Source of the DNA: Clostridia bacterium
Lineage (GTDB): Bacteria; CBDUZB01; JAGLHV01
Direction: 5' to 3'
Length of the DNA: 61,161 bases
Assembly: GCA_030637025.1 (NCBI GenBank)
Contig: DAOVVV010000013.1
Location: 1 to 61,161, forward strand
Positions 12,298-54,185 of the stretch are shown here, one piece after another. A program made the translations under genes and the position numbers. The notes under the pieces were generated by a model. It saw only the letters and a list, made by a program, of their open reading frames with translations. It was not told the origin of the DNA and did no database searches. Every line of letters begins with the position of its first letter. Position 1 is the stretch's first letter.

Positions 12298-12465
12298 AGA
12301 CTTCTACAAAATAGCCTTTTTCCCTTTATTGTCATTCCTGCGAAAGAAGGAATCTATTGATATCTTAAGCACATTATAGATTCCGCATCATCCGCCTTAG
12401 GCGGAGCGGAATGACCCGCCTTATGAACTGACGGACAGGCAGAATGTGTTCTTTTGCTGAACTTT
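12298..12465. mobile_element. MITE-like family A copy carrying nested palindromes
   Basis: Ends AGACTTCTACAAAATA / CTTTTGCTGAACTTT; internal GTCATTCCTGCGAAAGAAGGAATC..GATTCCGC..GCGGAATGAC shared with 18825 and 44600. Confidence 0.75.
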
Positions 12466-12495
12466 TATAAAAGTATTTAAGACTCCCTATAAAAT

Positions 12496-14931
<2,436 letters not shown>

Positions 14932-18794: not shown

Positions 18795-18824
18795 AGCATT
18801 CCTCCTTTAATATAAAAAGGCAAA

Positions 18825-18978
18825 AGAGTTCTGCAAAATACAATATTCTGTCATTCCGCTCCGCCTCATCCGCCTGAGGCGGAGGATGATGCGGAATCTA
18901 TAATGTTTTTAAATATCAATAGATTCCTGCTTTCGCAGGAATGACAATCAAGGTAAAAAGGCTATTTTGCAGAAGTCT
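18825..18978. mobile_element. MITE-like family A copy (reverse orientation) with doubly nested palindrome
   Basis: 16-bp terminal inverted repeats AGAGTTCTGCAAAATA / TATTTTGCAGAAGTCT; body is the reverse complement of 44600-44729. Confidence 0.8.
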
Positions 18979-44599: not shown

Positions 44600-44729
44600 A
44601 GAGTTCTGCAAAATAGCCTTTTTACCTTGATTGTCATTCCTGCGAAAGAAGGAATCTATTGATATTTAAAAATATTATAGATTCCGCATCAAGTGCGGAA
44701 TGACAGAATATTGTATTTTACTGAACTCT
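44600..44729. mobile_element. MITE-like family A copy (no nested insertion)
   Basis: Ends AGAGTTCTGCAAAATA / TATTTTACTGAACTCT; two internal ATTCC..GGAAT hairpins. Confidence 0.8.
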
Positions 44730-53630: not shown

Positions 53631-53773
53631 TGCTAACGGCAAAAAATAGTCCATAGTCAGAAATTACAGTTATTAGTTACGAGTTATAAATTATTAGTTA
53701 AAAAAAAGTTTAAATTTTGCTTGTTCGCTCCGCCTGAGGCGGATAAGGCGGGAAGTTGGGAGTTTGAACGAGG

Positions 53774-53941
53774 AAAATGAAGGCAAAACATATTTTTCTC
53801 TAGATGCATAATTTTACCCTATGGGCACGCAAAAACAAGCTAAAAATGGAAAACTCGCTTTGCTCAGACAGTTCCATTTTTTTAACGCTTGTTTCTGCTA
53901 AAATTTGCTATATCGTTCAAAACACATTTTCCCTTCATTTT
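53774..53941 (+). repeat. Structured repeat family B copy
   Basis: AAGGCAAAA..ACCCT..GGGCACGCAAAAACAAGCT..AACTCGCTTTGCTC..TCGTTCAAAAC..CCTT. Confidence 0.85.
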
Positions 53942-54185
53942 TTTGTTTGTAATTGTTCCGTTTATAGAGGTGTTTTTTCGTGTTTATTCTTTGTCTCTGT
54001 TTTTGTCTTTTTCTTTTAACTTTGTGCCTCTGTGCCTTGATGCCTTTGTGCCTGTCTTTAACTGTATTTTGAAGTTGGGAGTTGGGAATTTGAAATAATA
54101 GTCAAGTATAGTTTATGACACGAACGGAGTGAGTCTGTGACTGTTTGTGATACAGTATTTATGAGTTGGGGGTTTGGAACGAGGT

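Follow-up and report, generated by a model that had tools for sequence, protein, structure and literature searches.

Very small palindromic repeats are widespread, and their mode of spread is largely unknown. IS200/IS605 elements move by a hairpin-based, single-strand mechanism without target duplication; they have two different subterminal hairpins and a fixed target of 4-5 nt immediately 5' of the insertion, and no target bases are deleted. In Nostoc/Anabaena, Elhai et al. (2008) reportedly described SDRs, hairpin repeats of 21-27 nt whose mobility is said to have been inferred from nested and strain-specific insertions. In the parts of PMC3733652 and PMC3116915 that deal with them, REPs are short, GC-rich, dispersed palindromes with variable self-complementary loops, sometimes located inside small palindromes or genes. 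The former source also mentions Rickettsia palindromic elements, which are palindromic repeats present in frame in functional genes. The GC clusters of yeast mitochondria, as presented in part of PMC4478555, are GC-rich palindromes that proliferate in an AT-rich genome, with constrained stems and variable loops, and that merge and shuffle. Finally, Ssn (GIY-YIG) cuts single-stranded DNA upstream of the NTS hairpin; the passages of PMC11893778 (Chenal et al. 2025) that concern the hairpin indicate that it tolerates extensions at the loop and that the identity of the loop is non-essential.

Here we analyse a stretch of 61,161 nucleotides from a Clostridia bacterium (contig DAOVVV010000013.1 of assembly GCA_030637025.1), hereinafter designated the window, which is also contained in cold-seep and marine-sediment metagenome runs. 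An earlier, sequence-only reading had noticed in it a 15-bp palindrome in empty, single and double insertion states, together with a fourth copy elsewhere, and all of the coordinates and strings that it gave for them are correct on re-reading. The palindrome, TCCGCCTNAGGCGGA, is perfect and is designated E15.

E15 is reminiscent of REPs as they are portrayed in those passages: it is also short, GC-rich, palindromic, multi-copy, nested and present in genes. However, REPs are imperfect palindromes of 20-40 bp with a GTAG or CGTC tag, whereas E15 is a perfect palindrome of 15 bp without a tag; and the RAYT gene is flanked by REPs, whereas no cognate transposase gene is flanked by E15. In addition, replacement of target bases is seen for E15, while the REP passages of PMC3733652 do not describe it. 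E15 and the GC clusters, as far as the latter are covered above, are both GC-rich palindromes in AT-rich genomes, but GC42 is 42 nt long and E15 15 nt, and the flanks of E15 are variable and unduplicated, with target bases removed instead. Because no duplication is observed at 12 filled/empty contexts, E15 is neither a MITE nor a GC-cluster-type element. Specifically, a MITE needs terminal inverted repeats from an IS and a target-site duplication, whereas E15 loses target bases. The same loss sets it apart from IS200/IS605, and its variable flanks, with T-N-A adjacent in only 22 of 62 contexts, may do so too. The "Ssn-related motif" NTS/dRS3 resembles the hairpins (GTCATTCC..GGAATC) of the MITE that hosts E15, judged by the NTS consensus; Ssn, however, is described in those passages as cutting upstream of the hairpin and not in the loop, E15 is not itself an NTS, and there is no link between Ssn and E15. 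SDRs, as reportedly described, are longer than E15, which moreover occurs in unrelated lineages; PMC3184786 does not mention SDRs. Rickettsia palindromic elements are about ten times longer than E15. Thus, E15 differs from the described systems in size, perfect symmetry, target-base replacement and presence in two unrelated lineages. None of the literature searched, an incomplete sample, describes a palindrome of 15 bp that inserts by replacement, a statement on which the SDR work could bear.

Results

Loop states of the host MITE

The host MITE is ~125 bp long. It has terminal inverted repeats TTCTGCAAAATA...TATTTTGCAGAA and two hairpins, GTCATTCC-TGCGAAAGCA-GGAATC and GATTCC-GCATCAAGTGC-GGAATGAC, and its identity to the query copy is 81-97% for the alignments of at least ~90 nt among the first 80 of 115. 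Three copies are located in the window (Table 1). In copy 1, a 25-nt hairpin module (12416-12440) follows immediately after GGAATGAC, and the flanks of this locus are 80 bp apart in the congeneric genome G003 vs 287 bp here. At the site of copy 3, the flanks abut in G002 and G003, with subject ranges overlapping by 7 nt; the absence of the MITE from these orthologous sites is based on match coordinates, in a region where the multiple alignment is poor. The abutting flanks indicate that the host MITE is recently mobile.

Table 1. Positions of the host MITE copies and of E15 in the window.
Feature	Position	Strand	Description
MITE copy 1	12298..12462 (ends approximate)	+	terminal inverted repeats (TTCTRCAAAATA...), two NTS/dRS3-like hairpins
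E15 (TCCGCCTTAGGCGGA), single state	12391..12405		right-hairpin loop of MITE copy 1; AGT of empty copies replaced
MITE copy 2	18824..18978	-	hosts the double state
Double state, 27-mer	18860..18886	-	TCC-[TCCGCCTCAGGCGGA]-TGAGGCGGA; inner E15 at 18869-18883; same loop position, MITE copy 2
MITE copy 3, empty loop	44600..44729	+	insertion specific to this genome
E15 (53729-53743) plus TAAGGCGGG	53729..53752		adjoins a ~185-bp repeat of a family other than the MITE

The right hairpin of copy 3, GATTCCGC-ATCAAGT-GCGGAATGAC, defines the empty state ATCA-AGT-GCGG, in which AGT corresponds to 44692-44694. The double state, read on the minus strand, is ATCA-TCC-[TCCGCCTCAGGCGGA]-TGAGGCGGA-GCGG. From AGT to E15 to the 27-mer, each step adds 12 nt, and target duplication is absent. 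The filled state of copy 1 is confirmed by a contig of an independent assembly, which matches 12365-12705 with 0 differences. The window contains three E15 matches vs 0.05 expected, more than chance accounts for: three were reached in 0 of 100 shuffles. Folded as DNA, the MITE hairpin has predicted energies that decrease stepwise, from -8.3 kcal/mol in the empty state to -13.0 in the single and -16.2 in the double state, and each added stem is stacked against its parent stem, on the 3' side of the latter.

Genome-wide, 32 right hairpins comprise 15 empty (AGT), nine single and seven double states and one chimera (AGTGCCTTAGGCGGA). Both main MITE subfamilies show all three states, and a third subfamily shows a single as well. 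All seven doubles have one orientation relative to the MITE. The state also differs between orthologous MITE copies, with a double in one case and a single in another in G001 where this genome (G000) is empty. Because loop identity is non-essential and extensions are tolerated in the Ssn system, according to the passages cited above (PMC11893778), the MITE loop is a plausible harmless landing site.

At one filled MITE loop, the arms TCTGCC..GGCAGA in G000 (C4:22620-22634) correspond to TCCGCC..GGCGGA in the G001 orthologue (L016:~1001). This compensatory pair of changes keeps the palindrome, and the variant arm recurs elsewhere. Outside the window, a second MITE is inserted in each of the two hairpin loops of the first (G000 C34:36971-37269, C65:6654-6931, C19:374-565 and C42:695-910). 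It has a terminal inverted repeat CAGACTGTGTCATAAC..., internal GC-rich hairpins and an ordinary 3-bp target duplication (CAA or GAA). In the left MITE hairpin, a ~47-nt composite hairpin (CCCCTGCGGAAGCAGGGG...CCCCGTGAAAACGGGG) of sequence unrelated to E15 replaces the GAAA loop without duplication (G000 C23:1913-2043; G001 L027:4290-4340 and 920-970); the left-hairpin loop is plain in an orthologous G000 MITE copy. Since this composite replaces a loop as E15 does, it hints at a process that is general to hairpins and not specific to E15.

In paralogues of the repeat at 53729, the 7-mer CAGTTCG or CAGTCAG is present where E15 stands. The ~185-bp repeat (53766-53948) has many copies of ~90% identity in this genome and its congeners, and the 2 kb around it yields more than 60 matches in each congener.

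Abundance and distribution

The genome (2.36 Mb, 77 contigs, 33.5% G+C) contains 37 exact copies of E15 and none of a reversed-pattern control, so the palindrome is not confined to a few copies or to a local accident, an outcome that the sequence-only reading had itself raised. Every CCGCC-N3-GGCGG site found genome-wide, 37 in all, is a full E15 whose loop fits T-N-A, namely TGA (15), TCA (11), TTA (6) or TAA (5). Of the GC-rich stems that form perfect 6-3-6 hairpins, TCCGCC leads clearly with 37 copies, and the next has 26. Exact copies outnumber decayed ones, with 10 copies at one mismatch and 19 at two, and E15 is more uniform than its host repeats. The stem core CCGCC/GGCGG is shared by a longer hairpin with a loop of 9 nt (TTAAGGACT-like), which is present in 25 copies; E15 equals this hairpin minus six loop bases.

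E15 is also present in the congeners G001, G002 and G003 (28, 13 and 5 copies) and in a distantly related genus of another phylum-level group, represented by G010, G041 and G042 (22, 7 and 1 copies). Little weight attaches to the three copies in G005, a genome whose 28 CCGCC-N3-GGCGG sites have loops of all kinds. E15 is absent from 35 other relatives of G000 and from three other members of the G010 group; the phylum-level groups searched comprise four genomes for the G000 lineage and six for that of G010. The 116 exact copies in eight genomes fall into 62 flank contexts, which bears out the claim that the palindrome has dispersed independently. Most copies in G000 lie within repeat modules. 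In G010, nearly all copies have unique flanks, and some are held by terminator-like stems (AAAAAGCCA-E15-TGGCTTTTTT) followed by T runs.

Also in G010, the 3' ends of tRNA-Ser(CGA) and tRNA-His(GTG) are followed after 1-2 nt by E15 (L057:301-315 and L058:301-315), which may act there as a terminator or processing hairpin. A ~31-nt composite, E15 immediately followed by TCTGCCTCAGGCATGA, is common to three genomes of different lineages (L011:1001-1035 in G001, L004:~1480-1515 in G005 and L050:~285-315 in G010). The G001 example is in the loop of a GTAG REP adjoining a RAYT-like gene.

A scan of 2.9 million viral contigs found E15 in 89 stretches, which is near chance by a rough estimate and gives no sign of a phage vector; the flanks at the 80 loci listed are mostly GC-rich, with a median of 57% GC. 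The idea that GGCGGA is an unusual hexamer, as a restriction site might be, was rejected: at rank 25 among 192 hexamers of similar composition, it is unexceptional.

Filled and empty sites

Twelve contexts could be compared in filled and empty form. The grpE tail reads AAT-CCGCCTAAGGCGGAG-CAG in G001 and AAT-ATG (or GTG)-CAG in G000, G002 and G003, a 15-for-3 replacement (+12) that changes NMQ to NPPKAEQ in the protein. As all three congeners are empty, the insertion is derived in G001, and here the direction of change is established. In a giant protein with FN3 repeats, GAA-E15-GGA in G010 corresponds to GAA-GTT-GGA in G042 (15-for-3, +12; V to SASGG). A second FN3 protein has GGGA-E15-GGAC in G041 vs GGGA-AAAACCTTC-GGAT in G010 (15-for-9, +6), with both G010 and G042 used for comparison. 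In a gene of 477 aa in G010 (C41), E15 stands in place of TCCCAAYCGGATGGA of G041 and G042; the exchange is 15-for-15 with no change in length, 7 of 15 bases are shared, and PNRMD becomes PPKAD. The length of this segment is kept within one residue in distant homologues. The tRNA-Leu(TAG) of G010 is 88 nt long vs 85 nt in G042 and is identical to it outside the variable arm, where E15 is found instead of 12 nt (TAGCTAAAACTG). A repeat loop differs by 16-for-11 between G001 and contig 77 of G000.

The other comparisons are between paralogues, from which the ancestral state is not decidable. They show 15-for-3 replacement in the MITE loop, in E15 nested in E15 and in a hairpin loop inside one G002 locus, where AGA is replaced. 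They also show 15-for-7 replacement in the 25-nt module beside the MITE hairpins and in the repeat family at 53729, and 15-for-6 in a further repeat family.

No target duplication is present in any of the 12 contexts or at any other junction examined, as had been claimed. The proposed rule that exactly 3 nt are replaced does not hold: 3 nt is the commonest outcome (5 of 12 contexts), and 6, 7, 7, 9, 11, 12 and 15 nt are replaced in the other seven. Within genes, the anticipated preservation of the reading frame is observed (+12 in grpE, +12 and +6 in the two FN3 genes, 0 in the fourth gene); the copies there are in frame, and two of three reading frames are used.

Target context

E15 nests in itself and in other hairpins, in agreement with the earlier description. 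Flanking stems of at least 4 bp surround E15 in 13 of the 62 contexts vs a mean of 6.6 with shuffled flanks, and 13 was reached in 8 of 1000 shuffles; stems of at least 5 bp are present in six contexts vs 2.6. Thus, hairpins are a preferred target, and the proposed targeting of them is not obligatory. T-N-A adjoins one side of E15 in 22 of 62 contexts vs ~17% expected from a background frequency of 0.091, which is an enrichment and not a rule. On the strand that has T-N-A 5' of E15, the 3' flank often starts with GCGG, GCAGG or GGA.

Y1 transposase genes

The search for a co-occurring HUH/Y1 gene, suggested by the sequence-only reading, did not single one out. Y1_Tnp proteins are encoded in 28 of the 41 genomes searched, including six of six that bear E15 and 22 of 35 without it, so their presence does not track E15; over these 41 genomes, the profile points to no enzyme linked to E15 and, as a marker, does not separate E15-bearing genomes from the rest. 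Three Y1_Tnp proteins are encoded in G000. E15 abuts none of their genes; the nearest copy, part of a MITE fragment, is found ~300 bp downstream of the C26 gene. The C6 gene is flanked by inverted repeats of its own and the C73 gene by GTAG hairpins of its own. The latter is a RAYT-like gene of 178 aa with GTAG-type hairpins on both sides, and partial duplicates of its own coding sequence flank it (L003:1080-1320 and 1830-2060).

Discussion

On balance, and by a modest preference, we regard E15 as a REP-like hairpin repeat of very small size, which spreads as a unit of its own and overwrites target bases. It would be the minimal, perfectly palindromic member of a GC-rich hairpin repeat family with the stem TCCGCC/GGCGGA, propagating as a unit in two small lineages of uncultured bacteria. 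New copies would overwrite a short target stretch, most often 3 nt and up to 15 nt, without target duplication. Insertion would favour the tips of existing hairpins, namely the NTS/dRS3-like hairpin of the MITE, a REP, terminator-like stems, the tRNA variable arm and E15 itself, and copies would likewise persist in the loops and tails of proteins if the change in length preserves the reading frame. We infer that E15 is copied in on single-stranded DNA, with donor and target both being extruded hairpins. The likeliest setting would be single-stranded DNA at replication or repair, and homology of the flanks would not be needed. The agent could be template switching during replication or a trans-acting enzyme that acts on single-strand hairpins, and stacking of the new stem on the parent stem would stabilize the product. 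The spread of replaced lengths, 3-15 nt, counts against this reading, as it fits imprecise repair or conversion no less than a defined transposition chemistry.

Alternatively, E15 is a passenger without mobility of its own, which rides in MITEs and other repeats and is moved between copies by template switching and by gene conversion, paralogous or ectopic, the copies at unique sites being rare ectopic patches. This is a serious rival for the MITE-borne copies; as an account of E15 as a whole, we consider it unlikely. Because most copies in G000 lie inside larger repeats, conversion between MITE paralogues could explain the recurrent junctions and the common orientation of the seven doubles. 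The chimera AGTGCCTTAGGCGGA looks like the end point of a conversion, orthologous MITE copies differ at several modules simultaneously, and the overwritten segment in the G010 gene on C41 matches E15 in length and at 7 of 15 bases. However, E15 at the unique sites in grpE, the FN3 genes and the tRNA arm has no flank homology to other copies, of the 19 flank contexts with a G010 copy, 17 consist of that copy alone, and the junction in the MITE loop leaves an available GCGGA microhomology unused. The unique sites also bear on the idea that each copy arises on site, by hairpin-templated strand switching from a neighbouring TCCGC/GCGGA stem. Although the inner 5 bp of the MITE stem (TCCGC/GCGGA) recur in the arms of E15, which also resemble the CCGCC/GGCGG stem of the 25-nt module, the same 15-mer is present in grpE, the FN3 genes, the tRNA arm and terminator-like stems without such a neighbour, and in the distantly related genus. 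Local origin is thus disfavoured for the spread, for which we judge it quite improbable; it would survive only as the origin of the first copy.

That E15 is an ordinary REP moved by a RAYT (HUH Y1) transposase seems improbable. Three Y1_Tnp proteins are encoded in the genome, a GTAG-tagged REP in G001 that adjoins a RAYT-like gene carries one copy in its loop, and REPs, in the account of PMC3733652 used here, likewise nest and occur in genes. Against this, E15 has no GTAG or CGTC tag, its flanks are variable over the 62 contexts, none of the three Y1 genes is flanked by E15, two of them having hairpins or inverted repeats of their own, and the presence of Y1_Tnp does not follow that of E15. 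It is very improbable that E15 is instead a motif that selection keeps for its function, for instance as the target of a dimeric protein or as a hairpin for termination or processing, and not selfish DNA. Its high uniformity, the compensatory pair TCTGCC..GGCAGA in one orthologous copy and the G010 copies just past the tRNA-Ser and tRNA-His 3' ends or in terminator-like stems with T runs are what such a motif would show, but E15 is also found in frame within genes in two of three reading frames, in MITE loops and nested in itself, and the eight simultaneous base changes in the G010 gene on C41 need a template.

Returning to E15 as a hairpin repeat that spreads as its own unit, its junctions are unusually clean in the tail of a chaperone gene, the loops of two surface proteins, the variable arm of a tRNA, other repeats and E15 itself. 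The absence of duplication together with the loss of target bases rules out ordinary cut-and-paste transposition, and the pattern points to a replacement-type process on hairpin DNA. Selfish hairpins can thereby add or rewrite short peptide segments in functional genes, such as PPKAE, SASGG and PPEAE. Present at dozens of unrelated sites in a few uncultured sediment bacteria, E15 would be among the smallest DNA repeats that seemingly spread by themselves. A more speculative and, in our estimate, doubtful proposal is that E15 marks an undescribed "hairpin writer", a trans-acting single-stranded-DNA enzyme shared horizontally by unrelated sediment bacteria. Such an enzyme would overwrite the tip of a target hairpin with the 15-nt hairpin, so that a few bases are lost and nothing is duplicated. 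If this were true, E15 would be the smallest known mobile DNA unit, one that rewrites tRNA arms and protein loops.
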